NCBI GenBank assembly: GCA_963831425.1
Contig: CAWHQC010000015.1
Location: 100,821-164,820, forward strand
DNA length: 64,000 nt
Direction: 5' to 3'
From: an uncultured Gemmatimonadales bacterium
GTDB lineage: Bacteria; Gemmatimonadota; Gemmatimonadetes; Gemmatimonadales; GWC2-71-9
Below, piece by piece: positions 17,646-57,117 of the stretch (the first letter of the stretch is position 1; every line of letters starts with the position of its first letter). A model generated the notes under the pieces. The model did not search any database and was not told where the DNA came from. It saw only the letters and a program-made list of their open reading frames with translations. Both the position numbers and the translations under genes were made by a program.

Positions 17646-18609
17646 GTGCCCTTCCGCCAGACCACCGTCTCCGGCTTCCCCGCCGTCGCGCTCCGCTCCG
17701 AGGAGCTCGAAGTCGTCGCCGTGCCGGCGATCGGCATGAAGCTCACCCATCTCCGCCGGCTCCGCGGGCGGGAGTGGCTCTGGCGCAGCGACCAGATCCC
17801 GCTCGCGCTCCCGCGGCCCGGCGCCTCGTACGTCGAGACGGCCGACAGCGGCGGGTGGGACGAGTGCTTCCCGACGGTGGGACCGTCGCCGATTCCGGGC
17901 GCGCCGGGAGACGCGCCGCCGTTGCCGGACCATGGCGAGCTGTGGAGCGCGGAGTGGACCAGCTCGGTCTACGAGCACGCGGAGGGCACGACGCTCGACG
18001 GGCACGGCGCAGGGGACGCGGCTCCCCTACGAGTTCCACCGGACAGTGACGCTCGAGCAGGGCACGCCGGTGGTGCGGTTGCGCTATCGGCTGCGGCACA
18101 CCGGAGGGACGCCGTTCCCCTGGATCTGGTCCGCCCACCCGCTCTTGAACGTGCAGCCCGGGACCACCCTCGACCTGGCCGGCGTGCGCCAGGTCAAGCT
18201 CGACGCGGTGCACGGCCGGGCCGACCTCAGCCGGGACGACGTGGTGAGCTGGCCCGGCGCGATCGGCGGCGACGCCGGCCGGTTCACCTTGCCGCCGGAT
18301 GGGGGTTGGGCGGTCAAGCTGTTCGGCGACCTCGGGGCGGAGGGGTCGATGGCGCTCACGGACCCGCGCGAAGGCGAGCGATTGGAGATCCGGGTGGATC
18401 CGCAAGAGGTGCCGCAGGTCGGGCTGTGGATCAACTGCGAAGGGTGGGCGCCCGCGGGCCGCCGTCCGTATTACAACCTGGCGCTCGAGCCGTGCATCGG
18501 CGCACCTGACCGGCTGGCGGACGCGGTAGCTCGATGGGGCACGGCGCAGACGCTGGCGCCCGGCGAAGAGCGCCGCTGGGCGGTGGAGGTGAGGCTTCCG
18601 GCGCCTTGA
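17646..18609 (+). CDS. Aldose 1-epimerase/galactose-mutarotase-like protein, one frameshift near 18000.
   Basis: ORF 17646..18509 holds the N-part VAVPAIGMKLTHLRRLRGREWLWRSD..ADSGGWDECFPTVGP..LPDHGELWSAEWTS. ORF 17932..18609 holds [73 protein letters not shown]. Confidence 0.55.
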
Positions 18610-19539
18610 TCTCCGCGCTGTCGCCGGGTTTCCGCTCGAGTCGCGTGTCCTCCCACGAGACCGGGTCCTCGATCGGCTCCAGATGGGTGAACACCGTGCT
18701 GTTGGGCACCGCCGCGCGCACCTCCTCCTCGATCTGCTCCAGCAGGTCGTGCCCCCGCTGCACCGACCAGTTCCCCGGCACCAGCACGTGGAAGTCGATG
18801 AACCGCCAGGCGCCCGCCTGGCGGGTCCGCAGCGCGTGGAAGCGCACGCCGCCGCGAGCGTGGCGAGCGAGGATGTCGGTGATCGCTGCGCTGCAGCTCC
18901 TCGGGGATCGCCGTGTCCAGCAGGCCCATCAGCGAGCGGCGGAGGATGCTTCACGCCGGTGCGCACGATGTTGAGCGCGACCAGGATCGCGATGATCGGA
19001 TCGAGCCGCTGCCAGCCGGTGAGCGCGACGCCGCCCAGACGCCGACGATGACGCCGAGCGAGGTCCAGACGTCGCTCATCAGGTGGTGCGCGTCGGCCTC
19101 GAGGGTGATGGACTGGTGCCGGCGCGCCGGCGCGGAAGAGCATCCGGGCGACGAGCAGGTTGATGACCGAGGCCGCGATCGAGATCCCGACGCCAAGCGC
19201 GAGCTGCTCGATCGGCTGGGGGGCGAGCAGCCGGCGGACCGAGGCGTAGAGGATGCTCGCGGCGGCGAGCATGATGAGCGCGCCCTCGAAGCCGCTGGAG
19301 AAGTACTCCGCCTTGCTGTGGCCGTAGCGGTGGTCCTCGTCCTCCGGCCGCGCCGCCGCGGTGAGCGCGATGAGCGCCACGACGGCCGCGGCCAGGTTGA
19401 CCAGCGACTCGAGCGCGTCGGACAGCAGGCCGACCGACCCGGTGACGGCGTAGGCGCCGCCCTTGAGCCCGATCGTGGCGAGCGCCGCCAGGATCGAGAT
19501 GACGGCGTAGCGGCGGAGCGAGCGGCGCTGTTCCGTCAC
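18431..19539 (-). CDS. Cation diffusion facilitator (CzcD/FieF-type) transporter, about 3 frameshifts. The 3' end is probably over-extended.
   Basis: [57 protein letters not shown] lies in ORF 17743..19539. [22 protein letters not shown] lies in ORF 18951..19196. [46 protein letters not shown] lies in ORF 18431..18847. Confidence 0.65.
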
Positions 19540-19540
19540 G

Positions 19541-20461
19541 TCAGGCAGCCGCCGGCGGCAGCATCCGCAGCACCTCGGCGATGGTCAGCGGCGCGCTGCC
19601 CTCGGCCCGGTTGTTGACCAGCAGGTAGGCCGGGATCCGGGTGCGCACCGCGGTCTCGATCAGCCGCAGCAGGTCATGGCGAAGCGGGGGCGACGGGTCC
19701 TGGATCCGGTCGTAGGGCGCGAACGCGTCCACCGCCTCGTCGTAGGTGCGGCCCGGCCGGAGCAGCGCCCGCGCGACGATGAAGGGGCCCGAGACCGCAC
19801 CCGGCAGGTCGAGCTGGTCGCCGATGGGCGGCATGCGGGTCCAGGAATTGAAGACGTGGGCCACGCCGTGCTCCCGCAGCACGGCGAAGTACATGGGGGT
19901 GAGGAACTCCTCGTTCCGGATCTCGACCGCGTACATCGCCCTCGCGCGGCAGCGCGCCGAAGAACTCGTCGAGCCGGCTCCGCGAACCGCTCGGCGGTCA
20001 TCGCCGCTGCCCCGGCCGATGGTCTGGAACTCGAAGACGAACGGCCCCGCGTGGTCGGCGAAATGCCGCTGGTACGGCTCGTACACCGCTTCCAGGAACA
20101 GGTCCGGACTCAGAAAGTCCGGGTTGACCTGGCCGGCCCGCGCCTTGTCCTGCGCCTTGCTGAACGTGTGCACCGTGAGCTGGTTCCAGACCTTGCTCAC
20201 GCAGGGGAAGCCGGCCGGCAGGTGTTCCGCGTAGGACGCGAGCACCGCGTCCGTTGGCGGCGCGTAGAAGCTGGAGTCGATGCCGACGGTACGGAAGAGG
20301 GGGAACGCCGCGTACTCCTCCAGCATCCTGGCCGAGGCGCCCCGTCCCTCGTATTCCCGATGGTAGACCAGCCCCCGCCAGCCCGGATAGTTCCACGAGG
20401 AGGCGCCGAAACGGACGTCCGCCGGCAGCCGGGCCGCGAGGGCCCGGAGCTCCTCCGTCAT
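19541..20461 (-). CDS. DUF72 family protein, two close frameshifts near 19950-20000.
   Basis: [121 protein letters not shown] (inner Met of ORF 19541..20866). The start overlaps the upstream stop (ATGA). Confidence 0.7.
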
Positions 20462-21639
20462 CGGCGCACGATCCGGAACACCCGACCCTCCGCGCTCAGG
20501 ACGTACAGCTCGCCGGCGGCGTCCTGGCCGAAGCTCGGTACTCCGCCGCCCGGGGCCAGCGTGGGCCACTGCTGGGGCTCGGTCGCCTCGCCGTCCTGGA
20601 AGCCGGAAGCTCCGCACCCAGCCCTGGCAGTAGTCGGCGTAGAAATAATGCCCCTGCAGCGCGGGAATGGCAGCGCCCCGGTAGACGTAGCCGCCGCTGA
20701 TCGAGCAGCCCTCGGCGTGCGAGTACTCGAGCACGGGCAGGCGTGAACGGGGCCGGGTCGCACGCGGGGTCGGCATAGCAGTGGCGTCCTTCCATGACGT
20801 TCCAGCCGAAGTTGGCGCCCCGGCCCGCTCCGGCGGCGGCGCGTGGCCACGTCCACCTCCTCCCACGCGTTCTGGCCGACATCGGCGATGTAGAGGTCGC
20901 CGGTGGCCGGATCGAAGTTGAACCGCCAGGGATTGCGGAGGCCCAAGCTCCAGATCTCGCGGCCGAGCGTCGGTCCGACCCGCGAACGGATTGTCGGGAG
21001 GGATGACGTAAGGCGTGGCGCGCCGAGACGTCTATTCGCAGATATCCGCCCAGGAGGTCCGCCAGGGATTGGCCTCTCCCGCCGGGATCGCCGCCGCTGC
21101 CGCCGTCGCCCAGGCCGAGGTAGAGCATCCCGTCCGGACCGAACAGGAGACGGCCGCCGTTGTGGTTGGCGAACGGCTGTTCGGCCGTGAGGATCACCGT
21201 CTCGCTGGCCGGGTCCGCACGGTCGGGGTCGGTCCCGGATACACGAAAGGACGAGACTGTGGTGTTCCCGTCCGGATCGGTATAGTGGACGAGGAAACGC
21301 CCGTTGGTGGCGTAGGCGGGGTCGAACGCCAGATCGAGCAGTCCCTGCTCGCCCCCGGTGGAAACCCGTCCAGCGAGGTCGAGGAACGGAGTCGGGAGCA
21401 GCGCCCCTTCCTTCACGACGCGAATGGCGCCGCCCTTCTCGACGATGAACAGGCGGGGGTCGCCGGGCGGGGCGGTGAGGGCGAGCGGGAAGTTCAGGCC
21501 CGAGGCCACCTCCTCCAGGCCGACCGGCACGGCACCGTCGGGCGGGCCGAGCCCCGCGGCATCGCCCGATCCGCAGCCCGGAGCGGCGGCCGCGGCCAGC
21601 AGCCAGAGCGCGGGACTCAAGCAGTCGGATGCGGGCCAT
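20458..21639 (-). CDS. PQQ-dependent (soluble glucose/sorbosone-type) sugar dehydrogenase lipoprotein, multiply frameshifted.
   Basis: MARIR../..[16 protein letters not shown], then [76 protein letters not shown] in ORF 20496..21842. [36 protein letters not shown] lies in ORF 20458..22029. [45 protein letters not shown] lies in ORF 19541..20866. Confidence 0.7.
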
Positions 21640-21666
21640 GCGGAATCCTTTCGAGGTCGAGGCACG

Positions 21667-22170
21667 ATGAGGCGGTGCCGCCTGGTGGAGAAGATGTGGG
21701 TGCTGCTCCCGGCGATGGCCTGCACCCCGCTGGGTCTCTGGATGTACCAGGACCCGGGGGTGACGGTGTCTCGGGTGCGGCTGGGCACCGAGCCGACGGA
21801 CTCCGCGCCCGTCGTGGTGGCGCTCGACGTCAGCAATCCCAATGACTATGGAGTCTCGACCACCCGGGTCGAGCTCTGGTTGAGACTGGACGATCGGCCC
21901 ATCGGCCGCCTCGATCGCACCAGCCATGTGGCACTGCCCCAGGTGGCGACCTCCACCGTAGCGCTTCCGCTCGTTCCCGACCGCGGCACGAGCGCCGCCC
22001 AGCTCCGGGCATTCGGGTCGGGTGTCCATCGCTTCATGGTCGAGGGGCGGGCCACGTTCGCTACCCCGATCGGGAGCCGGAAGGTCCGGTTCGCCCAGGA
22101 GGGCCAGTTGGCGTTCGGGCCGCCAGCTTTGCCAGCATCCGCTCCAGCCGGTCCAGATGCGTCACCGTGA
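21667..22170 (+). CDS. LEA_2/NDR1-HIN1-like (water-stress type) membrane-anchored protein.
   Basis: [104 protein letters not shown] (inner Met of ORF 21358..22170). The family call is from memory. Confidence 0.45.
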
Positions 22171-25100
22171 GCGTCACCACCCCGAACTCCTCCTCGACCT
22201 TCCCCCGAAAGATGAACGGTCCCTGATCGAACAGCACGTGACCGCGCTCACGATAGATGTCCGGGAAGAGCACGACCTCGATGAGCCCGTCGCCATCGTC
22301 GAAGGTGGCGAACTCCATCGGCTCGTCCTTCAGCGTGTGGACCGGCTTGGCGCTGGTGAGCATCCCGGCCGCCAGCACGTGCTCGCCTACGTGCCGGTGC
22401 AGTTCCGTGCTGGGACAGAGCCGGAACCGCCGGAGGTCGTCCGCGTAGAGCCGCATCGGGTGCGCGTCGGTGGTGAAGCCGAGGGCGGCGTGCTCCTCCC
22501 GGCGGCGGCGCTCGGGGCCGTACTCCTTGAGCACGGGCACGGCGGGCGGAAGGTGGTCGAACCAGTCGCCCGGGCGATCGTCGGGTGAGCGGACGCACTC
22601 GGCGGTCGAATCCACCAGCCAGAGCATCATGGGCCGGGTCCAGTCGCCCGCGATCGAGTCCAGCGCGCCGACCTTGATGAGCGCGCGCAGGTCGGCGGGG
22701 GAGATGCCGGTGCGGGCGCGGAGGTCGGCCAGGCTGGTGAACGGGCGGAAGGATGGAAGGACGGAAGGCGGAAAGGGAGAAAGGACCCGCGGCCAGGCAC
22801 CGGCACTGTCATCCCGAGCGGAACTGTCATCCCGGGCGGAACTGTCATCCCGAGCGGAGCGAGGGATCTGGCCGGGCCGAGCTCGAACCATTCCCAGCAA
22901 GATCCCTCCGTCGCTGGCGCTCCCTCGGGATGACAGTCCCGCTCGTCGTCTTCCTCCGCCCGCTTCTCCCTCCCTCCATCCCGCGCTTCCAGCACCCGCT
23001 CGGCCCCCTCCGCCGACAGCTCCTTCACGAACTGCAGCCCGATCCGGAGCTCCCGCCCGCGGCCGGTCGTGCGGAGTTCGCTCGCGTTCACGTCGGGCGG
23101 CAGCACGGTGAGCCCCATGCGCATGGCCTCGGCGACGTAGACGAACGGGTGATAGAACCCGCCCCCGTTGGCCAGCACCGCGGCCATGAACTCGGCCGGA
23201 TGGTGCGCGCGCAGGTAGCACGCGTGCTGCGCCACCTGGATGTACGACGCCGAGTGTCCCTTGCAGAAGCTGTAGCCGGCGAACGACAGGATCATCGCCC
23301 AGACCCGCTTGGCCGTCTCGGCGTCGCGGCCGAGCGCGAGCGCGCCGGTGAAGAACTCCTCGGCGTAGCCGGCGAGCGCCCTGGCGGGTCTCTTCTTGGA
23401 GAGCGACTTCCGGAGTCCGTCGGCGGTGGCGAGCGGCATCCCGGCAAAGGCGGCGCACACGTTGACCACGTCCTCCTGGTAGACCATGACGCCGAACGTC
23501 TCGGCCAGCGTGTCGCGCAGCACGGGGTCGAGCGGCTCATAGGGCGCGCCGTGCAGCCGCTCGAGATAGAGCCGGATGAAACGGTTGGAAGCGGGGCGGA
23601 TGATGCTGGTGTTGAGTACCAGCAGCTCGAAGGTGTCGGCCCGACTCTTGGCGCAGAGCGCCCGCGAGGCGGGCGACTCGGTGTAGAACACGCCCATCGT
23701 CCGGCCGGTCCGGAAGAGCTCCTTCGTGGGCTCGTCGTCGCCGGGATCGGAGGAGGTGTAGTCGATGTGCCGGCCGGTGTGCGCGTGCACCGCCGTGATG
23801 GCGTCGCGGATGACGGCCAGCGAGCGGTTGCCGAGCAGGTCGATCTTGATCAGCCCCGTGTCTTCGGCGCCGTCCTTCTCGAACTGGATGACGGGCACGG
23901 TCAGATCCGGGTGCCCGTCGAGCGTCTTGACCGCGCGCTCGGTCGGCACGTAGTCGGTGAGCGCGGTGGGCACGATCACGACGCCGCCCGGGTGAAGCGA
24001 GAGGTGCCGCGGCACGCCCACCAGCGGCGCCGCCATCCGGGCCAGCTCCTGCCAGCTCGGCGGCAGGTCGAGCGCCTTGAAGTTGGGATGGGTGGCGAGC
24101 ATCTCCTCGAGCGGCTGCTCCTCGTACCACGGGATCCGGCGCGTCACCTCGCGGATCTCGCCGTTGGGCCGCCCGTGCACCTTGGCCACCTCCCGGAGCG
24201 CGCCGCGGAGGCGGAAGCAGTTGTGGTTGGCCACCATCGCGGCCTGCGGATGGGGGTAGTGCCGGAACACGTAGGCCAGAACGTTGTCGCGCTCGTCCCA
24301 CGGAAAGTCGAGGTCGATGTCGGGCGGGTCCGTGCGCGCCGGATTGAGGAACCGCTCGAACAGGAGCCCCGCGCCGAGCGGCTCGACGTGGGTGATGCCG
24401 AGACAGTAGCTCACGATCGAGTTGGCGACGGAGCCGCGGCCGCAGTGGGTGGGGCCGTGCTCGACGATGTCGCGCACCACCAGGAAGTAGTCGGCGAACC
24501 CCTTCATCCCGATGATCCGGAGCTCGTGCTCGAGCCGGTCGCGCGTCACCGGCGCGATGGTGCCGTAGCGCCGCTCGGCGCCGGCATAGGCGAGCGCGCG
24601 GAGCTCCTGGGTGGCGTCGTTCGCGTCGGCGAAGCGCGGCGACACCACGCGGCCCACCGGAATCCGGTACGCGCAGCGCTCGGCGATCTCGGCCGCGGCC
24701 CGCAGCGCCTCGGGGCAGTCCGGGAACTGGCGCGTGAGGTCGGCGGTGGGGCGGAGCCAGGCGTCGCGGGCAGACGGTCGGGCGGGCAGGCGGTCGGGTG
24801 GTTGGGGGGTCTCACTCTCCTCCCGACCGTCCGACCGCCTGTCCACCCGCCCGCCCGAGAGCGTGCCGTTGAGGTGGATCGCCCGGAGGAGCCGGTGGCG
24901 GCTCCAGTCTTCGGGGTGCGCCATGACGACGGCGTTGGTGACGACGGGCGGAAGGCCCATGCGGCGCGCGGCGGCGAGCACGGCGTGGCGCTTCTTGCCG
25001 GGACGGAGCTCGGCGTAGAGGTCCCGCGGCCCACTCAGGCGGAGAACGCGCTCCAGGAAGGCGGGATCCTGTGAGAGGAGGACGAGGCCGGCGCGATCGG

Positions 25101-25509
25101 CGGCGAGGGAGGCGGAAAGACGGAAAGACGGAACGACGGAAGGATGGAAAGGCGGGGCAGGTAACCCCGATCGCGGCTGATTGTCCTTCCGTCCCTCCAT
25201 CTTTCCGTCCTTCCCTCCTTCCGTCCAGTGAATCTCCGTGATCGTCCGGCAGAGCGCCGCCCACCCGCGCTCGTCCATCGCGAGGGCGACGGTCTCCTCA
25301 TCCTCGGTGACGAGGTGCGCGCCGAGGATGGGTCGCACGCCGGCAGCCTCGCAGACGCGCTGGAACTCGACGGCTCCGTAGACGCCATTGGTGTCGGTGC
25401 AGGCAAGCGTGCCGAACCCTCGCTCGGCCGCCGCGCCGGCAAGGACCTCGGGACTCGAAACACCGGTGCCGAAGGAGAAGTGGGTGTGGAGGTGCAGGTG
25501 GGTAAACAT
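22061..25509 (-). CDS. dnaE2: Error-prone DNA polymerase III alpha homologue DnaE2. It carries two in-frame hairpin-repeat insertions and a 236-nt composite repeat insertion that changes the reading frame near the C-terminus.
   Basis: The PHP start [21 protein letters not shown] and full-length alpha-subunit similarity lie in ORF 22627..25752 ([14 protein letters not shown].., [48 protein letters not shown]). After ..[19 protein letters not shown] the conserved sequence resumes as [29 protein letters not shown].. in ORF 22061..23458. Confidence 0.85.
22745..22980. mobile_element. Composite nested palindromic (MITE-like) insertion inside dnaE2.
   Basis: The outer arms are GGAAGGATGGAAGGACGGAAGGCGGAAAGGGAGAAAGG (22748..22785) and its approximate complement at 22946..22983. 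The inner element has three 18-nt tandem units CTGTCATCCCGRGCGGAA (22806..22859). The last extends to ..GCGAGGGATCT and pairs with AGATCCCTCC..CCCTCGGGATGACAG (22900..22936). Confidence 0.75.
24772..24852. repeat. 81-nt hairpin element with 8-nt periodic G-rich/C-rich arms, in frame inside dnaE2.
   Basis: AGACGGTCGGGCGGGCAGGCGGTCGGGTGGTTGG, loop, TCCCGACCGTCCGACCGCCTGTCCACCCGCCCGCCCGA. It is translated as [27 protein letters not shown] between conserved ..LNGTLSG and ARDAWLRP... Confidence 0.7.
25105..25226. repeat. About 120-nt hairpin element with 8-nt periodic purine/pyrimidine arms, in frame inside the dnaE2 PHP region.
   Basis: GGAGGCGGAAAGACGGAAAGACGGAACGACGGAAGGATGGAAAGGCGG, 28-nt loop, TCCTTCCGTCCCTCCATCTTTCCGTCCTTCCCTCCTTCCGTCC. 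It is translated as [41 protein letters not shown]. Confidence 0.7.
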
Positions 25510-25545
25510 TTGCGTGTGCGCCCACCGGGGTACGAGACGGGGGTG

Positions 25546-25564
25546 GTTCGGGTTTTCTTCGGTA
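25546..25564 (+). promoter_or_regulatory. Direct-repeat operator candidate GTTCGGGttttcTTCGGTA (11-bp period), upstream of dnaE2.
   Basis: It lies 37-55 nt upstream of the dnaE2 ATG (25509) and downstream of a TTGACG hexamer (coding strand, 25592..25587). 16 of 19 positions are identical to the site at 36904..36922. Confidence 0.5.
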
Positions 25565-25928
25565 AGGTGCTGTCGGCGGCGGCGCGCGTCAAGGAGGCGC
25601 GGAAGCCGTGGGCTTCGGACGCGCCATCCTGACCCAGCTCCGCGCTCACCTCCTGCCGAAGGCCCCGGCACTTGCCGGCATGGTGGCCGCTGGTGGATCG
25701 CGAACACGTTCACCGATTCTCCCGTGCGTTCGGTGCTTCGCTCGGTCGACATCGGCCGCGGAGGAACGCACGTGGTCAGCGGTTCGGTGTAGAAGGCGAT
25801 GCACTTCTGGCTGCCGCTGCTGGCGGCGGCGCTCTGCGCCTATCTGGGCGAGGCATCGCGAGCGATTAACGCCAGCCGGCCGGAGCACGGCACCGCATCA
25901 CGGCGGCCGATTTTTCCTCCGATGATGC

Positions 25929-25957
25929 TTGATATCCCTTGGGCTCGCGGTTAATCT
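25929..25957 (+). promoter_or_regulatory. Sigma70-like promoter candidate, TTGATA-17 nt-TAATCT.
   Basis: TTGATA at 25929..25934, a 17-nt spacer and TAATCT at 25952..25957, in an AT-richer patch of an otherwise unassigned 1-kb gap. Confidence 0.35.
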
Positions 25958-26388
25958 TCCCGCGGGAGTCGCGTCCCGATGATGACTCGTAGCGGCGGCA
26001 AAGTTTCGATCGTCGGCGGGTGTGACCAGGCTGGTCACGATCATTGGTGGCGCGATTTTGCGTTTCGACGAATCACGAGCTCTCAGAGGAGCGGCATGTC
26101 ACTGTCGGTGAAGGCGCGGAGCACCGAAACCCATCGGCGTGGCCGTCACGCGATCGAGCGTGCGCGGCCCACGGCCGACGCGTCGCGCCTGCGCCATGCG
26201 CAGCTCATGCTCCCGCGGGGCGTGCATCGGACGCGCATGTCCGAGACTCGCACGCTACCGGGGAGTGCGGCGGTTCGGCGGGTGCGAACCGCGCCACGCT
26301 CCCCGTACCCGAGCCTGAAGCGCACTGAGGCCGTGAGGCTGCCCAGGTCCACCGGGTAGTCCGCCACCGTCCTCCCGGGCAGCAGCCT

Positions 26389-26430
26389 CGCCCCACCTGC
26401 GCTTCACGCCCGGGTGGGGCGAAGTGTTTC
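26389..26430 (+). terminator. GC-rich hairpin (9-bp perfect stem CGCCCCACC/GGTGGGGCG, 15-nt loop) followed by AAGTGTTTCC.
   Basis: Seen directly in the sequence, 100 nt upstream of the traR/dksA-like gene. It could be a terminator or attenuator of a transcript from the 25929 promoter. Confidence 0.3.
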
Positions 26431-26529
26431 CGGGATGGCGAGCGCGACCTCGGTGATCCCGGCTACCGAACGCGGCCTGGGCAGGGCAACGCAACTCCCG
26501 AGCCCTGACGACATCGAAGGAGGCGAACG

Positions 26530-26862
26530 ATGAGCACACTCGAGAAGAAGAAGAAGACCTCCATTGCCGCACGGCACGCGGAGCTGAGAGCCGGGATGGA
26601 GGAGGATCTCCGGCGACTCGCATTCGGCCGGTCCTCGCGCGGTGCGGGAGAGGTCACGATGGAGGCGGTCCAGCAACTCGAGCCTCGCGCCCGCCGGCGC
26701 GGGCTGGAGCTGCTCGACGCTCTCCGCCGGTTCGACGCGGGCACCTACGGCATCTGCACCGGCTGCGAGACCCGGATCCCCTATGTGCGGCTCTCGGCCA
26801 TTCCCGAGACGACCGTCTGCGTGGAGTGCAGCGGCGCCCGCGAGCTGCTGTTCCGGGCGTGA
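26530..26862 (+). CDS. TraR/DksA-family C4 zinc-finger protein.
   Basis: Intact ORF with a GAAGGAGG Shine-Dalgarno upstream. ..LDALRRFDAGTYGICTGCETRIPYVRLSAIPETTVCVECS is a CxxC-x17-CxxC zinc finger. Confidence 0.8.
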   Translation: MSTLEKKKKTSIAARHAELRAGMEEDLRRLAFGRSSRGAGEVTMEAVQQLEPRARRRGLELLDALRRFDAGTYGICTGCETRIPYVRLSAIPETTVCVECSGARELLFRA

Positions 26863-26909
26863 GCGGCATGCGAGCCGGACAAGTGAGAACCCAGCCAGGA
26901 GGATCGAAG

Positions 26910-27227
26910 ATGAAGATCAGGATCCGAAGTGCCTCGTCCCTGACGGACGGGCTGCGCGGACACATCGGGCGGCGGCTGCGGTCGGCCCTTGACCGGTTCC
27001 GCGGCCACGTGGATGACGTGCAGGTGCGACTCAGCGACGTCAATGGTCCGCGCGGCGGCGTGGACAAGCGGTGCCGTCTGGTACTGAGTGTCTCGAGCGG
27101 CAACGTCGTCGTCAGCGAGGGCCGCGCACCCAACTTCTATCAGGCGGTGGATCTCGCCGCCAACCGCGCGGCCCGCTCGGTCGGGCGGGTATCCGCCGCC
27201 CCACATCTGATGAGGAGGACGGCATGA
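26910..27227 (+). CDS. hpf: HPF/RaiA-family ribosome-associated (hibernation) protein, short form.
   Basis: MKIRIRSASSLTDGLRGHIGRRLRSALDRFRGHVDDVQVRLSDVNGPRGGVDKRCRLVLSVSSGNVVVSEGRAPNFYQAVDLAANRAARSV (inner Met of ORF 26826..27227, GGAGGA Shine-Dalgarno). Confidence 0.65.
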   Translation: MKIRIRSASSLTDGLRGHIGRRLRSALDRFRGHVDDVQVRLSDVNGPRGGVDKRCRLVLSVSSGNVVVSEGRAPNFYQAVDLAANRAARSVGRVSAAPHLMRRTA

Positions 27228-27622
27228 GAGTCGCCCACGCCATGCGCACGGATCTCAGGACGATCTCTTCGAGCGCGATGGTCCCCGACGCCGTCGCGGC
27301 CCTGGTGGAGGGCCGGATCTCCTCGCTGCCCGTCATGGACGGGCAGCGGCCGATCGGGGTCGTCTCGCAGCAGGACATCCTCCGGGCCGCGATGGAGAGC
27401 GATGGCGAGGGTCGCCCGCGCTGGTTTGCGGAGCGCACCCCAGTGATCGCGATCATGTCCCCGTGGCCGCCGGCGGTCGCCGCCGACACGCCGGTAGCCG
27501 AGGCCGCGCGCACGATGCTGTACCTCGACCTCAAGCGGGTGTTCGTGGTGGACGGTGGCGACCTCGTCGGTGTCCTCTCGCAGGCCGACATCGCCGATGC
27601 CGTGGCCGTGGCCAGGCTGTAG
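27224..27622 (+). CDS. CBS-domain pair protein.
   Basis: MRVAHAMRTDLRTISSSAMVPDAVAALVEGRISSLPVMDGQRPIGVVSQQDIL..VFVVDGGDLVGVLSQADIADAV. The start overlaps the hpf stop (ATGA). Confidence 0.75.
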   Translation: MRVAHAMRTDLRTISSSAMVPDAVAALVEGRISSLPVMDGQRPIGVVSQQDILRAAMESDGEGRPRWFAERTPVIAIMSPWPPAVAADTPVAEAARTMLYLDLKRVFVVDGGDLVGVLSQADIADAVAVARL

Positions 27623-27669
27623 AGCGGCGGGCGGGGCGGTGGACGGCTCCGGTGCGGATCGGAGGCCGG

Positions 27670-30331
27670 CTACCGTCCCGTCCGCTGCAGCTCTTCGAAC
27701 CAATTCAAGACCAGATCGACGCGGCGCGGCGCCGACTCGGGCGGGACCTTGATCATCAGGAATCTCCGGCCGTTCGGCTCGACGTCGTAGCTCCCCGTGA
27801 AGAGCTCGGTGGGATAGGAGCCCGCGAACAGAAATCCTGGCCGGCCGGTCTCGCCCGTGGCGGGTACAACCCCCACAGCGAATACGCTGTCGCCGCTGCG
27901 GTAGACCAGCTCGCGGCCGGCTCGCGTCCAGCGGGGCTCCGCCCCACCGGAGGTGGAGATCTGACGCCGCAGCCGCCCAAGGTCAGGGTAGGACTGGACG
28001 TACACTTCGCGGCGCCCCGACTCGTCGGAGTCATAGGCGAGCCACCGGCCATCCGGCGACAAGGCCGGCCGGCGAGCGGAGAAGCGGCTCTGCAGCAGTG
28101 GTCGGGCCTTGCCGTTTCCGTCCAGCGGCAGCACCCAGATCTCGCTCGCCGCGGGCGCGCTCTGCGAGAACAGCAGGAGCTTGCCGTCCGATGAGACCGA
28201 GCCTGCGTACTTGTCGGAGCCGCCCACCAGGACCGGCGTTTCCGGCGAGCCGGCATCGGCCGCGCGCGAGTACAGGTCAAAAACCGGCTGTTCGGACGAG
28301 TAGATCAGGCGCCGGCCGTCGGCGGTCCAGAAGGCCCCGAATTCGGCGGCGTCCCCGGACGTGATCCGGGTAAGAAGATCCCGGGCCTGCTCGTAGACCC
28401 AGATGTCCCGATTGCCGCCGGTCCCGGTGATCGTGAGCGCGACCCGGCGCCCATCGGGCGAGAGCGCCGGCTCGGAGTAGCGCCCGGGCCGTGTCAGGAG
28501 CGGTTGCTCGGTGCCGTTTCGCGAGACCCACACCGGCTGGGTCTCCCCATTCATTGTGGAGGCGGGAATGTAGGCCAGGTCGCCACGGTCGGAGACGCTG
28601 AACGCTGCCATCCCGTTGGACGGCAGCCCGGCGACGTCGCCTAGCACCGGGATCGCCGGGCCGGCCACGGCGAGGTGGCGGAGATCGAACGGTACTTCGA
28701 GCAGCGACTCGCCGCTGGCGTAGACCAACTGCCCGGTGGTCAGGTAGCGGCCCATGACGCCGCCCCGCACCAGCACCCTGCGCTCGCCCGTCCGGAGGTC
28801 CAGCAGCTCGATCCTGGCGCGGTCGATGGGCGTAGAGAAGTTGGTGAACACCACATGACGCCCGTCGGGAAGAATCTGCGGCCACCAGTGGGCCAGTTCC
28901 CCCGCGGTGGAATCGGGGGTGGTGAGGCGCTCGGCCGCGGCGCCGCCCGCGCTCACCCGCCACAGCCCGCTCTTGTACGATTGGGTATAGACGATGGTAC
29001 CGTCCGGCCCCCAGCTCCCGCCTCCCCAGCTCGCCTCGGCGAGGACGATCGGGTCGCCGCCCTCCACCCGCACTTTCTTCAGCTTGCCCCCTGCGGTGAA
29101 CCCGATCCACGCGCCGTCGGGCGAGAAGAACGGCAACGTTCCGTCCTCGGTCCCGCGGACCGGTTCCACATCGGTTCGGCCGAGCTCGCGAAGCACGATC
29201 GTGGACTGCCCCGCCACCGTCACAGGAATCGCGAGCCGCCGGCCGTCGGATGAGAACGCCGGAAGCGGGTTGCCGGCCTGAAGTCGGTCCGCCGCGGGAA
29301 GCTGGACGGAGAATCGAACCGGCCCTCCCGGTGCGGACACGTTCGGCCGAGCGCGCACGAGCAGCCCGGCGATGGCGAGGAGAGCGAGAGCGAGGAGGGC
29401 CCAGGGGAGCGCGGGCCGGGTGAGCCGGGCCCGAGGACGCCGGAGCGGCGTGACGACAGGTCGCCGAGAGCGCCCCGGAACCCGTGGCCGCCGGCGTCCG
29501 GCCCGCCAGCGCCGCGGCGAATTCCGCGGCGGAGGCGAAGCGATCGGCGGGCAGCTTGGCGAGCGCCTGGTGAATCGCGGCGGCCGCCGCGGGCGGCACG
29601 GTGTCGCGCGCGGCGGTGAGCGGCGGCGGGCTTCTCGCGTGATCACCTTCGGCGACGATCGCCTGCGCGGTCGAGCCGAGGAACGGCGGGTCGCCCGCCA
29701 GCATCTCGTAGGTGACCGCCCCGAGCGCGTACACGTCGCTGCGGGGGCCGATCTCGCGCTCGCCCATCGCCTGCTCGGGGCTCATGTAGTGCGGCGTGCC
29801 GAGCGACATGCCGGTCTCGGTCATCCGGGTGCCGCCGGCCTCGCTGGCGGCGAGGGCGATGCCGAAGTCCGCCACCAGCGCCTGCCCGTCGTGGAGCAGG
29901 ATGTTCTCGGGCTTGATGTCGCGGTGGATGACGCCGTGGCGATGGGCGTAGTCGAGCGCGCTGGCCACCTCGCCGGCGATGGAGAGGGCCTCGCCGACGG
30001 GCAACTGCTTCTCGCGGGTGAGCCGGTCGCGCAGCGATTCGCCTTCGACGAACGGCATGACGTAGAAGAGGAAGCCGTCGGCCTCGCCCGAATCGAAGAG
30101 CGGAAGGATGTGGGAGTGCTGCAGGTTCGCCGTGGTCCGGATCTCGGCCAGGAATCGCTCGGCGCCGATCACGGCCGCCAGCTCGGGGCGCAGCAGCTTG
30201 AGGGCGACTGGGCGGCCGTGCCGGACATCGTGGGCCAGGTAGACCGTGGCCATGCCGCCGGCGCCGAGCTCGCGCTCGAGCCGGTAGCGATCGGCGAGCG
30301 CGGCCTGTAACCGGATCAGGACATCTTGCAC
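27670..30331 (-). CDS. Ser/Thr protein kinase fused through a TM segment to a large PD40/TolB-like beta-propeller. Three clustered frameshifts in the linker (about 29480-29650).
   Basis: The kinase part in ORF 28277..30331 reads YRLERELGAGGMATVYLAHD..HRHGVIHRDIKPENILL..ADFGIA..GTPHYMSPEQ. ORF 27670..29646 holds the TM segment ALPWALLALALLAIAGLLV and repeats FSSDGRRLA, FSPDGAWIGF, WGPDGTIVY, LSPDGRRVAL, WTADGRRLIY, LSPDGRWLAYDSDESGRREVYV. Confidence 0.85.
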
Positions 30332-30356
30332 GCTGGCCGCATGGAAATGGGATGCT

Positions 30357-31015
30357 TCAAGATGAGCCCGCTGCGGCCGGTTGGCTAGGAGGCCGCGAAG
30401 GCTCGGCCCGCCGCCGGCGGTAGTAGGCCGCCGCGTTGGTGCGGTTGCCGCAGCTCCGCATGTCGCACCACCGGCGAGTCCCGTTCTTGGTCACGTCGAG
30501 AAAGTAGAGCACGCAGCCGGGGTGCGCGCACTGCCGCACCCGGCCGGGGTCGGCGTGGCACAGGAGATCGGCCGCCGCCTCGGCGATCGGCACCAGCAGG
30601 TCCTCGGGCTCCTCCACCCGCACCCCGCGCTCCAGCGTGTATCCCTCGCCTTCATGGCCGGTACGATCCGCGACGTACCGGCTCCCCGCGCCAGCAGCTC
30701 GTTCACCCGTGCGACGGTCGCGCGCGGGCCGGCTTCCCCTCGGACCACGCACTCGCCAGCCGGCGGAGCGTGCGCCCGGAGCGCCCGAGCCGCCTCGACC
30801 GCCGACTCGGCCCGGCGCCGGCCCTCCCACCGGAGGAGCGAGGCGCGGGCGGCGGCCGGGTCGAGCGCGCCGGCTCGCACGAGCCAGCGGACCAGGTCGT
30901 CCAGGCCGGCCAGCAGGTCGCGCGGCATTCCTTCGCTCACGATTTCAGTGTTGACAAAATCGAGCGCGCGGTGGTTGCCGACGAAGATGAATGGAGAGGT
31001 GCCGGCGGTGCTCAT
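30357..31015 (-). CDS. CGNR zinc-finger (ABATE-domain) protein, frameshifted near 30680.
   Basis: MSTAGTSPFIFVGNHRALDFVNTEIV lies in ORF 30491..31051. LLCHADPGRVRQCAHPGCVLYFLDVTKNGTRRWCDMRSCGNRTNAAAYYRRRR lies in ORF 30357..30830. Confidence 0.75.
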
Positions 31016-42248: not shown

Positions 42249-42280
42249 AGGGCCCGGCTTCTGAATTGCCCCGGATATCC

Positions 42281-42432
42281 GATTCACCACAGAGGCACAG
42301 AGGGCACGGAGGGTTCCCATACCGGGAGGGCACCTGGGACCCGGACAACACCAACGACTTGATGGTGGCTCCGCTCCCGGATGCTCTCCGTGTCCCGGCC
42401 CCTCCGTGCCCTCTGTGCCTCTGTAGTGAATC
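42281..42432. mobile_element. 152-bp MITE with 32-nt terminal inverted repeats (31 of 32 match), TTCACC family.
   Basis: The left arm is GATTCACCACAGAGGCACAGAGGGCACGGAGG (42281..42312). The right arm is CCTCCGTGCCCTCTGTGCCTCTGTAGTGAATC (42401..42432). It lies between the convergent stops at 42248 and 42449. Confidence 0.75.
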
Positions 42433-42448
42433 GAAATGCCGGAACGAC

Positions 42449-42923
42449 TCAGACGCCCACCACCACGGGCACGTTCTCCTCGAGCCACTCCCCGGGCCGC
42501 GCCAGCACCTCCGCCACTCGGAGCCGGCGCGGGGCCGGCGGCGCGCTGGATGCCCCCGTCTCCGCGGCACTGTGGCGGAGCAGGAAGAGCGTCTCCCCTG
42601 CGTTCCGCGCGTGCTCCGCGACGAACGCAGCGAGCGCCCGGGGCCAGCCGCCGGCCGGCGCGGGGATCCCGGCGCCCCGCCGATGGCGCTCGATGGCCGC
42701 GATCAGCGAGCCGCGGGTGCGTCCCGCGCGCCGGTAGCGCTCGCCGGAGGTGCCGCTCGTCTTCGCGCGGGTCGGGGCGGCGGGGACGGATGAGGTCGCA
42801 CGAGCAGGCGCCCACGAGCAGGCGGACTACGGTCTGGGCGGCGGGGTGCAGCGCCGCGGAGCGCCAGCGGTCGGCGCGGTCGGCCGGCTGGGCGGCCAGG
42901 CCCGCGGGCAGCATCGACCGCAC
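42449..42923 (-). CDS. Hypothetical protein, 1-2 frameshifts. Start uncertain.
   Basis: ..LTLSEVRSMLPAGLAAQPADRADRWRSAALHPAAQTVVRLLVGACSCDLI.. lies in ORF 41649..42923. The C-terminus ..RRLRVAEVLARPGEWLEENVPVVVGV-stop lies in the ORF 42085..42570 frame. No family recognised. Confidence 0.3.
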
Positions 42924-48068: not shown

Positions 48069-48918
48069 TGCTGCTGCTGCCGTTCGCGCCGCTGCTGGAC
48101 GAGCGATCGCGACCTACGGTGCCGTTCGAGTGGGCCTGGTCCCTGCACCCCAGCGTCCTCCTGGGCACCGGAATCCTCGGTGCCCTCTATTTTTACGGGA
48201 TCGGGCCGTGGCGCCGGCGGCGTGGACTCCCCGGGTTCCCGCCTGGAAGGTGGCGTCGTTCTGCGGGGCGCTGCTCGTGCTGCTGGGCTCGCTCAACGGG
48301 CCGGTGCACGATCTCAGCGACTACTATCTCTTCACCGCCCATATGGTGCAGCACCTGCTGCTCACCCTGGTCTTCCCCCCGCTGCTGCTCGCCGGAACGC
48401 CCGGATGGCTGCTTCAGCCGCTGCTCCGCCCGCCCGCCGTGCGGCGGCTTGCCCGGGTGCTCACCCAGCCGTTGCTGGCTGCCGTGCTGTTCAGCGCCGC
48501 CATCATCGTGTGGCATCTGCCACCGTTCTACGAGCTGATGATGCGCGACCACGACGTCCACATCCTGACGCACCTGATGTTCATGGTCACCGCCACCCTG
48601 CTCTGGTGGCCGGTCATGAGCCCGGTGCCCGAGCTGCCACGGCTCGGCTACGGCCTCGGGATGCTGTATCTCTTTCTGGTGGGGATCCCGATGCAGATCG
48701 TCGCGGCGATGATCTCGCTGGCCGGCGGGGTACTCTACCCCTGGTACAGCGCGGCCCCGCGCACGTGGGGCCTCTCGCCGCTGGACGACCAGCAGCTCGG
48801 CGGCCTGATCATGTGGGTGCCCGCGAATCTCTACATGTTCCTGGCCATCGGCGTGCTGTTCTTCGCGTGGGCGAGGGAGAGCGAGCGGGAGGACGGCGGT
48901 GAGCGGCAGGGGGTGTGA
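48065..48918 (+). CDS. ctaG: Cytochrome c oxidase assembly factor CtaG (caa3-type), one frameshift near 48230.
   Basis: The ATG overlaps the ctaF stop (ATGA). MMLLLPFAPLLDE..WAWSLHPSVLLGTGILGALYFYGIGPWRRR lies in ORF 47243..48538. VASFCGALLVLLGSLNGPVHDLSDYYLFTAHMVQHLLLTLVFPPLLLAGTP..HILTHLMFMVTATLLWWPV..LGGLIMWVPANLYM lies in ORF 48130..48918. Confidence 0.8.
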
Positions 48919-48975
48919 GGGTGAGAGGTGAAAGGTGAGAGGTGAGAGGTGAGAGGTGAGAGGTGAGAGGTGAGA
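48912..48975 (+). repeat. Tandem heptamer array (GGTGAGA)n, about 9 units.
   Basis: GGTGTGA GGGTGAGA GGTGAAA GGTGAGA x6, read directly. The ctaG stop codon lies in the first unit. Confidence 0.9.
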
Positions 48976-49056
48976 GCAGGTGGGCTGCGCTTTGTGAGCC
49001 ATGTGTGCGGCGGGGAGATTTGAGGGGACTGGCCACGGCGTGTAGCATGCGATCAC

Positions 49057-49422
49057 ATGCAGGATCACAAGTCGATCGTCGCCTGGCAGGAAGCCCATGA
49101 GGTGGCCCGAGCCGCACTGCGGACCTGCCGCACGCAGTGGAAGCCGTACGCCGCGGCGCTCTTCGGGCAGCTCCAGCGTTCCTCACTCTCGGTACAGCTC
49201 AACATCGCTGAGGGTTATGCGCTGCGATCGCCTCGACGATTTTATTACCATCTCCAAGTGGCATATGGATCGGCTGTCGAGACGGCGGAGCTCCTGGAGT
49301 TGGCCATCGAGGAAGGAGTGCTCCCGGATCCGGAAGGTCAGGCCATACTCGCGAGATGTCGCCGAACGCAGTCCCTCTTACTCGGTCTCGTCCGGCGCTA
49401 CCGTCCGGCCACGCCCCGCTGA
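49057..49422 (+). CDS. Four-helix-bundle protein (23S rRNA intervening-sequence protein family). Intact.
   Basis: MQDHKSIVAWQEAHEVARAALRTCRTQWKPYAAALFGQLQRSSLSVQLNIAEGYALRSPRRFYYHLQVAYGSAVETAELLELAIEEGVL.. matches my memory of the family pattern (W..A..L.., Q..RS..SI..NIAEG.., GS..E..). Confidence 0.75.
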   Translation: MQDHKSIVAWQEAHEVARAALRTCRTQWKPYAAALFGQLQRSSLSVQLNIAEGYALRSPRRFYYHLQVAYGSAVETAELLELAIEEGVLPDPEGQAILARCRRTQSLLLGLVRRYRPATPR

Positions 49423-49432
49423 TCCCCCCACC

Positions 49433-49505
49433 GCTCACCTCTCACCTCTCACCTCTTACCTCTCACCTCTTACCTCTTACCTCTCATCCCTCACCGCTCA
49501 CCGCC
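49433..49505 (+). repeat. Tandem heptamer array (TCTCACC/TCTTACC)n, the inverted partner of 48912..48975.
   Basis: GCTCACC TCTCACC TCTCACC TCTTACC TCTCACC TCTTACC TCTTACC TCTCATCCC TCACCGCTCACC, read directly. Confidence 0.9.
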
Positions 49506-49855
49506 ATCACCAAACAGAGCCACCCCGCCAGAAACGCCACGCCGCCGATCGGCGTGATCGCCCCGAGCCAGCGGACCCCGGACAGTGCGAGCGCGTAGAG
49601 GCTTCCGCAAAAGAGCAGGGTGCCCAGGACGAAGAGCCAGCCGGCCCAGCCGATGAGCCCGCCCGGCCAGCGGGTGCCGGCCCACGCGGCCGCGAGCAGG
49701 GCCAGCGCGTGATACATCTGATAGCGTGCGGCCGTCTCGAAGACGGCGAGGAGCTCGGGCGAGAGCCGGGTCCGGAGAGCGTGGGCGCCAAAGGCGCCGG
49801 CCGCGACGGCGATGAAGGCGGACGCGGCTCCCAGGCCGAAGAAGAGTCGGTCCAT
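49484..49855 (-). CDS. DUF423 family membrane protein.
   Basis: MDRLFFGLGAASAFIAVAAGAFGAHALRTRLSPELLAVFETAARYQMYHALALLAAAW..WLFVLGTLLFCGSLYALALSG..LGAITPIGGVAFLAGW (inner Met of ORF 49484..50092). The last codons lie in the heptamer array. Confidence 0.75.
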   Translation of the reverse strand: MDRLFFGLGAASAFIAVAAGAFGAHALRTRLSPELLAVFETAARYQMYHALALLAAAWAGTRWPGGLIGWAGWLFVLGTLLFCGSLYALALSGVRWLGAITPIGGVAFLAGWLCLVMAVSGEG

Positions 49856-56346: not shown

Positions 56347-57079
56347 GGTCTCAATGATATCCCGGTGGGGAGGGCTCGGTCTGCTGGTGATCGCGGCCGC
56401 GGCGTGCGACCGGACACCGGCGCCTCCGGCCGCGGCGCCGCCGCCCGCGGGATCGGCGGCAGCCGCGGCCGACTCGCGCGGCCGCGTGGTCTTTCTCGGC
56501 ACGAGCCTCACGGCGGGGCTGGGCCTCGATCCGGCCAAGGCATATCCCGCGCTGCTGCAGCGGAAGATCGACTCCGCCGGGCTGCCCCTCACCGTGGTCA
56601 ATGCCGGCGTGAGCGGCGAGACCTCGGCGGGTGCGCGGCGGCGCATCGATTGGCTCATGCGGGAGCCGGCGGCCGTGCTGGTGATCGAGACCGGCGCGAA
56701 CGACGCGCTTCGCGGGCTCGACGTGGACTCGATGGTAGCCAACATCCAGGCGATCATCGACCGCGCGCGGCAACAGGTGCCGCCACCGGAAATCGTGCTG
56801 ATCGGGATGCGCGCGCCGCCGAATCTCGGCGCTGCCTACGTTCGACGGTTCGACGCGGCCTACGCCACTCTGGCCCGACGGAACCGGGTAGCGCTGGTGC
56901 CGTTCCTGCTCGAGGGGGTGGCGGGGGTCGACTCGCTCAACCAGGCCGACGCCATTCACCCGACGGCAGCAGGACAGCGAAAGCTGGCGGAGACGGTGTG
57001 GCCGGAGGTGAAGCGGGCAGGCGGTCGCGCGGTCGGGCGGGCGGAAGGTCAGGCGGGCAGGCGGTCAGGGCCTTCCTGA
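56345..57079 (+). CDS. SGNH/GDSL arylesterase-lysophospholipase (TesA-like) lipoprotein. The C-terminal about 20 codons are supplied by a hairpin repeat.
   Basis: ..GLGLLVIAAAAC.. then VVFLGTSLTAGLGL..VNAGVSGETSAG..VIETGANDALRG..ADAIHPTAAGQRKLAE (ORF 56324..57079). It is divergent from the ABC pair, as in the E. coli tesA/ybbA/ybbP arrangement. Confidence 0.8.
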   Translation: MVSMISRWGGLGLLVIAAAACDRTPAPPAAAPPPAGSAAAAADSRGRVVFLGTSLTAGLGLDPAKAYPALLQRKIDSAGLPLTVVNAGVSGETSAGARRRIDWLMREPAAVLVIETGANDALRGLDVDSMVANIQAIIDRARQQVPPPEIVLIGMRAPPNLGAAYVRRFDAAYATLARRNRVALVPFLLEGVAGVDSLNQADAIHPTAAGQRKLAETVWPEVKRAGGRAVGRAEGQAGRRSGPS

Positions 57080-57117
57080 ACTTGGGTCCGACCGTCCGAC
57101 CGCCGATCGCCGGCCGC
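57013..57117. repeat. Hairpin element with 8-nt periodic G-rich arm (GCGGKCRG units) and a shorter complementary arm. Same family as 24772..24852.
   Basis: GCGGGCAGGCGGTCGCGCGGTCGGGCGGGCGGAAGGTCAGGCGGGCAGGCGGTCAGGG, loop CCTTCCTGAACTTGGG, then TCCGACCGTCCGACCGCCGATCGCCGGCCGC. It lies between the convergent lipase and aminotransferase genes. Confidence 0.7.

Follow-up and report, generated by a model that had tools for sequence, protein, structure and literature searches.

A nested palindromic insert in a DnaE-family polymerase gene of a Gemmatimonadales bacterium, its frame offset and its relatives

The comparison of a polymerase gene from an uncultured soil bacterium of the Gemmatimonadales with its relatives suggests that a nested palindromic insert, which breaks the reading frame of the gene as assembled, is translated in frame as an extra loop of the enzyme. 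The gene encodes a DnaE-family DNA polymerase on the minus strand of a 64,000-nucleotide (nt) stretch of contig CAWHQC010000015.1 (positions 100,821 to 164,820, forward strand; GenBank assembly GCA_963831425.1), called the window here. The insert consists of an inner palindrome, one arm of which is tandemly repeated, between two outer arms of short periodic units (Table 1). A preliminary description of the window saw it as a 236-nt element that shifts the frame of dnaE2, either because a miniature inverted-repeat transposable element (MITE) landed inside another MITE and inactivated the gene, or because an insertion of about 79 residues, in frame in reality, is masked by a sequencing indel. 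The second explanation is the one that the evidence favors. With a probability of roughly 0.8, the true insert is in frame, 234 or 237 nt long, and translated as a low-complexity, disordered loop of 78-79 residues between the two helix-hairpin-helix (HhH) motifs, and the frame offset is an assembly indel. The claimed knockout of the polymerase is most likely an assembly artefact, and the anatomy beneath it is real.

The assembled gene changes frame across the insert, as the preliminary description stated. Conserved sequence runs in one frame (frame A) from the ATG at 25509 (MFTHLHLH..) to ..ERVLEAR, where the R codon ends at 22981, and it resumes in another (frame B) with PFTSLADL, where the P codon starts at 22744, continuing to a stop at 22061. 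The corresponding open reading frames (ORFs) are 22627..25752 and 22061..23458. The length of the insert at 22745..22980 leaves a remainder of 2 when divided by three. The Pfam HHH_6 profile is split at its position 49, with 1-49 found in the first ORF and 49-85 in the second, and nothing is missing. GC at third codon positions lies at 0.90-0.98, upstream of the insert for frame A and downstream of it for frame B; its phase switches across the insert and is flat inside it. Frames 0 and 2 of the insert are open, and frame 1 contains three TGA codons.

The lengths found at the same site in other genomes identify the segment as an insertion. A scan of one genome per species gave 80 loci, to which a close relative (L081, 96% nucleotide identity to the window) was added, and the distance between two conserved anchors was measured independently of gene calls. 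This distance is 0-213 nt across 76 other loci (L001-L080 and L081). Gemmatimonadales have anywhere from 0 to 213 nt at the site, and in the outgroups (Nitrospiraceae, Desulfobacteraceae, Eisenbacteria, and others) the figure is 9-12 nt, so that the comparison with orthologues proposed in the preliminary description defines the empty site. Since the outgroups and several Gemmatimonadales hold just 0-12 nt, the segment reads as an insertion, and a conserved native linker is excluded. The site is a surface turn and aligns with four residues, the turn ERGG, between both HhH motifs of Thermus aquaticus Pol III alpha (2HPI). In an AlphaFold model of a relative with the same nested layout (P0021), residues 841-903 are coil with a predicted local distance difference test (pLDDT) score of about 26-33, flanked by helices of pLDDT 82-90, and insert sites 1 and 2 (Table 1) likewise have low pLDDT. 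The model was built from 54 close homologues and is poor overall (mean pLDDT 54, predicted template modeling score 0.34), and only the local contrast around the inserts is used.

Relatives keep their inserts in frame, and the exceptions appear to track sequencing technology. Five variable insert sites of the gene were tested, namely the site between the HhH motifs and those after ITEIHW, after HLNGTLS, in KTL..VPVIQ, and after MLWLVD. Assemblies with short-read-type contig names were compared with 27 metagenome-assembled genomes (MAGs) of the MFD class, which are Nanopore assemblies (PMC12313526). Frame changes occur in 0 of 200 insert-spanning and 0 of 384 conserved anchor pairs in the short-read class, as against 15 of 133 and 11 of 243 in the MFD MAGs (Fisher p = 6e-7). 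All out-of-frame cases other than the window are Nanopore MAGs. Outside the MFD class, 77 of 77 inserts that add 30 nt or more keep the frame and contain no stop codon, which suggests that ribosomes read through them and that selection preserves the frame. For four relatives (P0014, P0018, P0021 from locus L054, and P0242), the reading frame of the inner element corresponds to frame B of the window, and P0242 includes the triplicated arm in this frame, read as ARDDTRARDDTLARDDT.

The window also contains many small indels elsewhere. Relative to locus L001 there are about 20 indels of one or two bases in 18117-21625, and relative to L081 there are several more in 25596-30712. When the proteins of relatives are compared with these loci by tblastn, they match two or three frames in the window and one frame in L001 and L081. 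Third codon positions take 57 of 92 and 51 of 78 of the differences between the broken neighbor genes and L001, a bias unlike that of multiply hit pseudogenes and one that makes the substitutions look selected. Because the neighbor genes are broken by single-base indels yet differ mostly at third positions, the window seems to come from an error-prone, apparently long-read assembly, and any apparent pseudogene in it deserves distrust. The indel-broken stretches are 18100-21650, 25596-26560, and the vicinity of 29458. Over the 227 codons that follow the insert, read in frame B, the changes on the window branch are seven synonymous and one non-synonymous (p about 0.001 under neutrality), a pattern which indicates that this segment is still under purifying selection.

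The frame error most likely lies in the degenerate 5' outer arm, at about 22935-22980. This position is suggested by the relatives with the nested layout, including P0242, which read the inner element in frame B. The three 18-nt units of the inner arm add up to 54 nt and are frame-neutral, and the unit-by-unit alignment with L081 shows that no 8-nt unit was gained or lost in the 3' outer arm. The error is probably one missing base (true length 237 nt) or two extra bases (true length 234 nt). A 1-nt BLAST gap at 22767-22769 relative to L001 and L081 was considered as the missing base and rejected as an alignment artefact, as the six 8-nt units align without a gap.

Several points weigh against an in-frame insert hidden by an indel. 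The polymerase core at 22967-25119 has no indel relative to L081, so errors in the window assembly would have to be patchy. One extra base, the commonest error type here, would leave the frame unrestored. The indel is deduced from comparison rather than seen in reads, and translation of the inserts is likewise a deduction. No close relative with an identical nested insert was found that would fix the exact position of the error: a search with the frame-B translation of the insert returned no near-identical strain, and only P0242 had the matching arm triplication. Finally, the loci share ancestry, so that the counts do not represent independent events and all of them are inflated.

Inactivation of the polymerase, one of the two alternatives in the preliminary description, is unlikely. 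A real and recent frameshift would truncate the protein to 960 residues, remove the second HhH motif and the OB fold, and leave a young pseudogene. The sequence as given is indeed out of frame, hairpins and non-triplet tandem units slip easily by their nature, a cell can do without an accessory polymerase, and the polymerase core has no other indel relative to L081. However, short-read assemblies have no frame breaks in 200 instances of such sites, the 7:1 ratio of downstream changes speaks for a gene still in use, and neighboring genes of a housekeeping type are shifted several times over while their substitutions look selected, which sequence error explains best. A functional change of frame is very improbable. 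It would be either a phase-variable ON/OFF switch driven by the 8-nt units, which are not multiples of three and vary in number by strain, or recoding stimulated by the hairpin (-1 frameshifting or bypass), for which the great stability of the hairpin and the position of frame B at -1 relative to frame A could be cited. There is no slippery heptamer of the type X_XXY_YYZ in any frame of 22900-23040, the 3' arm matches L081 unit for unit, and none of the 200 short-read instances is an OFF allele. Long-read MAGs are shifted in conserved, non-repeat segments too, and the equal folding of sense and antisense strands described below argues against selection for an mRNA structure.

It is extremely improbable that the insert is a chimera or misassembly that is absent from the genome. 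Palindromes and tandem units do confuse assemblers, and many short-read contigs of relatives break at the insert site. Independent assemblies of relatives (L054, P0014, and P0018) nevertheless show both modules, nested alike, at this very codon, P0242 has the same arm triplication, and the flanks join exactly at the position of the empty site. The features of the gene and its surroundings are collected in Table 1.

Table 1. Positions of the polymerase gene, its inserts, and related features in the window
Feature	Position	Strand	Description
DnaE-family polymerase, N-terminal part	22981..25509	-	843 codons; PHP, polymerase core, fingers, first HhH motif; frame A
Polymerase, C-terminal part	22061..22744	-	227 codons and stop; second HhH motif, OB fold; frame B
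Nested palindromic insert as assembled	22745..22980	-	236 nt; no codon-position GC signal
Outer arm, 5' in coding sense	22946..22980	-	G/A-rich, degenerate; translated in frame A
Inner REPIN-like palindrome	22801..22945	-	core GTCATCCCGAG..GGGATC arms around loop at about 22877-22892; read in frame B
Tandem array of one inner arm	22801..22858	-	18-nt unit, 3.2 copies, 92% matches
Outer arm, 3' in coding sense	22746..22790	-	about six 8-nt units, NNCCTTYC in coding sense, GGAAGG-type on + strand; frame B
Insert site 1, PHP domain	25120..25224	-	105-nt hairpin, AAGGACGG-type 8-nt arms, in frame
Insert site 2, after HLNGTLS	24769..24855	-	87-nt hairpin, G-rich/C-rich arms, in frame
Hairpin between inferred coding segments	42256-42457		58-nt arms, 83% complementary; CACAGAGG(G) tandem units, G-rich arm 5'
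Heptamer-flanked gene	48892-49508 (gene 49057-49422)	+ (gene)	PF05635/TIGR02436 four helix bundle between (GGTGAGA)x9 and (TCTCACC)x10
G-rich 8-nt array	57013-57117		GCGGTCAG/GCGGGCAG, then complementary GTCCGACC units; between opposite-strand coding segments inferred from third-position GC
333-aa gene, broken	18883-19128		tblastn with proteins of relatives
394-aa gene, 5-6 frame shifts	20604-21625		tblastn with proteins of relatives
882-aa kinase gene, frame shift	about 29458		tblastn with proteins of relatives

The repeat anatomy given in the preliminary description (18-nt tandem units, an inner inverted repeat, and 8-nt arms) is present, although the partner arm is degenerate. The inner inverted repeat pairs 22833-22854 with 22924-22945 (91%) and 22861-22876 with 22893-22908 (88%). 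The 3' outer arm has a clear 8-nt period and aligns unit for unit with that of L081. The 5' outer arm (about 22950-22980) is 71% complementary to its partner as DNA and better as RNA, through G-U pairs. As RNA the insert has a minimum free energy of -140.1 kcal/mol, compared with -108.3 +/- 5.4 for shuffled sequences (z = -5.9; 0 of 200 shuffles are as good). In Rfam, the insert and five metagenome copies of the inner element gave only sub-threshold matches to microRNA-type hairpins. The idea of a MITE inside a MITE holds in part. The nested, modular anatomy stands, with the modules occurring separately in relatives and terminal inverted repeats present in both. Membership in a MITE class is unsupported: there is no direct repeat at 22745/22980 or around the inner element when the junctions are read for a target-site duplication, a partner transposase is not known (no search aimed at one was made), and the outer arms have no conserved sequence. 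The inner core occurs in at least 120 metagenome stretches but only once in the 64-kb window, and the outer-arm units differ by site and lineage.

The inserts found at the site in relatives are hairpins of two kinds, corresponding to the two modules of the window. In the first kind, the arms consist of tandem units of 7-9 nt, overwhelmingly 8 nt, and sometimes one arm is left. The unit sequence varies by lineage (AAGGACGG, ACCGTCCG, AGCGGGGC, AAACGGGG, and others). Inserts of the second kind are palindromes whose core reads GTCATCC[CT]GAGCG.AGCGA.GGATC. Both are nested in L054 (P0021), P0014, and P0018 as in the window, and the inner element is alone at the site in many loci. At this site L081 carries just an 87-nt hairpin of the GGAAGG type, and L001 only the 3' arm of such a hairpin (42 nt). 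As these two closest relatives lack the nested layout, the loci compared indicate that the modules are separable and turn over fast. Arm multiplication of the inner element is also seen in L087, L098, and L012, and the loop of the inner element has a variant in the window that recurs in none of the other loci fetched. Many database entries (in P0241-P0360) are C-terminal pieces of the polymerase that are encoded on contigs of 0.6-2 kb and start within or just past the insert; short-read assembly evidently stops at such hairpins. Where the contigs are long ENA records, as with P0265, P0349, and P0357, the pieces suggest further split gene calls.

The inner palindrome belongs to a widely dispersed family. 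Its core is GTCATCCYGAGCGNAGCGARGGA, and the palindrome is also designated by GTCATCCYGAGCG. Contigs from soil and sediment metagenomes match the 23-nt core exactly at least 120 times, and the contigs that bear it range from 40 to 68% GC among the matches listed. The window holds a single copy. The typical form is a hairpin of 64-110 nt whose arms are small imperfect palindromes in their own right (ATCCY..11 nt..RGGAT), and in this arrangement the whole element resembles a REPIN doublet. Among the matches listed, 23 of 70 evaluable copies are inside ORFs that are open for at least 150 nt on both sides. One copy is in frame within a TPR/FG-GAP/ASPIC protein. On the minus strand of L125 (1687-4485), an ORF of 933 residues with no Pfam match contains two copies of a segment of about 40 residues that ends in ..QQQIPR[FS]ARDDS; it reads as the dispersed palindrome inserted twice, in frame, in one gene. 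At site 4 of the polymerase gene (window equivalent 23899-23919), L054 and L002 (P0021 and P0015) have KVEGGACPERSEG in place of DGHPDLT, which looks like a fragment of the dispersed palindrome in frame. A full-text literature search for the core sequence found no relevant paper.

The outer arms are shared as an architecture rather than as a sequence. No sequence is conserved between copies, and they have only the periodic organization in common: the period is 8 nt in most inserts, and the units differ by site and lineage. Short-unit arrays occur at a density of 0.50 per kb in the polymerase gene and 0.13 per kb in its flanks, an approximately four-fold enrichment in which shared ancestry inflates the counts. 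In the window there are three tandem-unit hairpins in the polymerase gene and three more between opposite-strand coding segments inferred from third-position GC. Around the hairpin at 42256-42457, plus-strand coding ends at about 42240 and minus-strand coding starts at about 42751 by the same measure. The gene at 49057-49422 encodes an Avd-like protein of the type found in 23S rRNA intervening sequences. Arrays of (GGTGAGC)n/(GCTCACC)n or (GGTGAGA)n flank every one of its homologues from other Gemmatimonadales (L202-L211); these loci have three genomic contexts, and the number of units varies by strain.

The two-armed periodic hairpins have an invariant polarity, the G-rich array always lying on the 5' side of the C-rich one. 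As palindromes they show this order on both strands. Inside the polymerase gene, the skewed inserts follow it in a ratio of 58:0. Outside the gene there are 23 pairs with the G-rich array 5', three that are unskewed, and four apparent exceptions, which are pairings between the arms of neighboring hairpins. The rule spans at least 14 unrelated unit sequences (loci L001-L081, L202-L211, and the window). Folding energy shows no such asymmetry: among 86 inserts the sense strand folds better in 36 and the antisense strand in 49 (p = 0.44). Since both strands fold equally well, the palindromy looks like a property of the DNA and not like a selected mRNA structure.

The insert is best explained by the entry of a composite palindrome into the short turn between both HhH motifs of the polymerase. 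The inner module is a widely dispersed REPIN-like palindrome, one arm of which is triplicated in the window, and the outer module is a pair of inverted arrays of 8-nt G-rich/C-rich units of a kind common in Gemmatimonadales genomes. Both modules would have arrived by insertion. The enzyme would probably tolerate the resulting loop in the way that Rickettsia palindromic elements are tolerated in their host proteins. The inserts would behave as selfish or mutational DNA that persists only in frame and only where the protein tolerates a disordered loop; a service of the insert to the polymerase is unsupported by the evidence in hand. The polarity and architecture of the periodic arms, and these only, also prompt a speculative proposal that we consider unlikely, namely that a dedicated process adds G-rich repeats of 7-8 nt to the 3' ends on either side of a break or insertion before the ends are rejoined. 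Such a process would explain the invariant polarity over at least 14 unit sequences, the identical unit in both arms, and the one-armed remnants. It would also explain why cargo lies between the arms, such as the dispersed palindrome in the polymerase and the Avd-like PF05635 gene at 49057. If it were true, the polymerase genes of Gemmatimonadales would record repeated events of breakage and healing at permissive codons.

The polymerase is probably of the DnaE2/ImuC type, and the name dnaE2 is plausible but not established. Its domains are PHP, core, finger, and HHH_6, and its chain stops soon after the OB fold. This ending and the name 'error-prone DNA polymerase' given to relatives by JGI make the name plausible; NCBI calls them 'DNA polymerase III subunit alpha'. 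On the other side, the NCBIfam models score alike and below their cut-offs for the protein P0001 (545 bits for the error-prone model NF004225, cut-off 939, and 584 bits for the DnaE model NF004226, cut-off 1002), and there is no imuB-like neighbor in the gene list of L081. Only the superfamily model TIGR00594 passes its cut-off with P0001. The closest proteins come from Gemmatimonadales MAGs, with up to 92-93% identity. The window's own gene call is the truncated product of 960 residues, which is not on record in public assemblies. Frame A is open for another 81 codons upstream of the MFTHLHLH start (25510-25752); this part has no third-position GC signal, is absent from the proteins of relatives, and is probably not coding.

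Inserts made of hairpins and tandem units are hot spots of indel error in long-read metagenome assemblies (15 of 133 in Nanopore MAGs and 0 of 200 elsewhere). Such indels lead to false pseudogenes and split gene calls, of which the inactivated dnaE2 is an example. The artefact verdict lowers the interest of the knockout claim as it was put forward, and the anatomy is moderately interesting in its own right. Protein-coding palindromes are best known from Rickettsia, and here a free-living, high-GC soil order shows them on a large scale, with five hot spots in one polymerase gene and inserts of up to about 240 nt kept in frame. As classes, translated palindromic inserts (those of Rickettsia) and paired arrays of short G-rich units (in Xanthomonas and Nostoc) are already known. 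A literature search for Gemmatimonadetes and palindromic repeats gave nothing specific. Judged by the open-access papers searched, the following appear to be new: translated palindromes in Gemmatimonadales, five hot spots in one gene, two nested types of module, arrays of 8-nt units in frame inside coding sequence, and an inner palindrome that crosses phyla and is often intragenic.

The insert can be compared with several known systems of translated or structured repeats. Rickettsia palindromic elements are described as palindromic repeats of 100-150 bp that form multi-copy families, lie in frame within unrelated functional genes, and are translated as additional peptide segments where the protein fold allows it (PMC10969869). 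The Gemmatimonadales inserts are similar in that palindromes in multiple copies lie in frame in genes and would add peptide segments, at positions that may be compatible with the fold. They differ in their host, a free-living soil phylum of 70% GC rather than an obligate intracellular bacterium, in having five recurrent hot spots in one gene, and in combining two unrelated nested modules, the outer of which is conserved only as an 8-nt architecture. The relation would be one of analogy only. Mitochondrial genes of Nematomorpha contain long coding inverted repeats that are translated into functional proteins (PMC6649704). They share with the polymerase insert the presence of long inverted repeats within translated genes, but there both arms encode conserved protein, whereas the arms of the insert form an extra, non-conserved loop. 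Foldback elements of Drosophila have a long stem with an optional coding loop. The PF05635 gene of the window, which lies between inverted heptamer arrays, has the same arrangement, and a gene of this family (S23p) is found in the intervening sequence of Coxiella 23S rRNA (PMC4990558). Unlike intervening sequences, the polymerase insert has no ORF and lies in mRNA rather than rRNA.

The two modules have their closest parallels in two different classes of bacterial repeat. Repetitive extragenic palindromic (REP) elements and REPINs are mobilized by RAYT transposases (PMC3116915). The inner element resembles them in that its arms are imperfect palindromes, inverted pairs form hairpin doublets of 64-110 nt, and many dispersed copies exist. 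REPs are usually species-specific and extragenic, whereas the 23-nt inner core occurs on contigs of 40-68% GC and about a third of its copies, among the matches listed, are inside ORFs. Arrays of G-rich heptamers are known from Xanthomonas and Nostoc (GGGAATC / GGGGAYT), and each Xanthomonas genome has 70-75 inverted pairs of them in convergent orientation (Rehm et al. 2015, PMC4692102). The GGGAATC arrays form G-quadruplexes in vitro, and their origin was left open (PMC4692102). Tandem G-rich units of 6-9 nt, paired with the G-rich array 5' on each strand, define this type, and the outer arms of the insert fit it. They share with these arrays variable copy number, frequent occurrence as convergent inverted pairs with the G-rich array first on each strand, the potential to form hairpins or G-quadruplexes, and the lack of a link to known mobile elements. 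They differ in that the unit is mostly 8 nt and varies by lineage and site, and in that they lie within coding sequence and are kept in frame. The rule that the G-rich array is 5' is also seen in Xanthomonas and now extends to another phylum, making the origin of the arrays a testable question.

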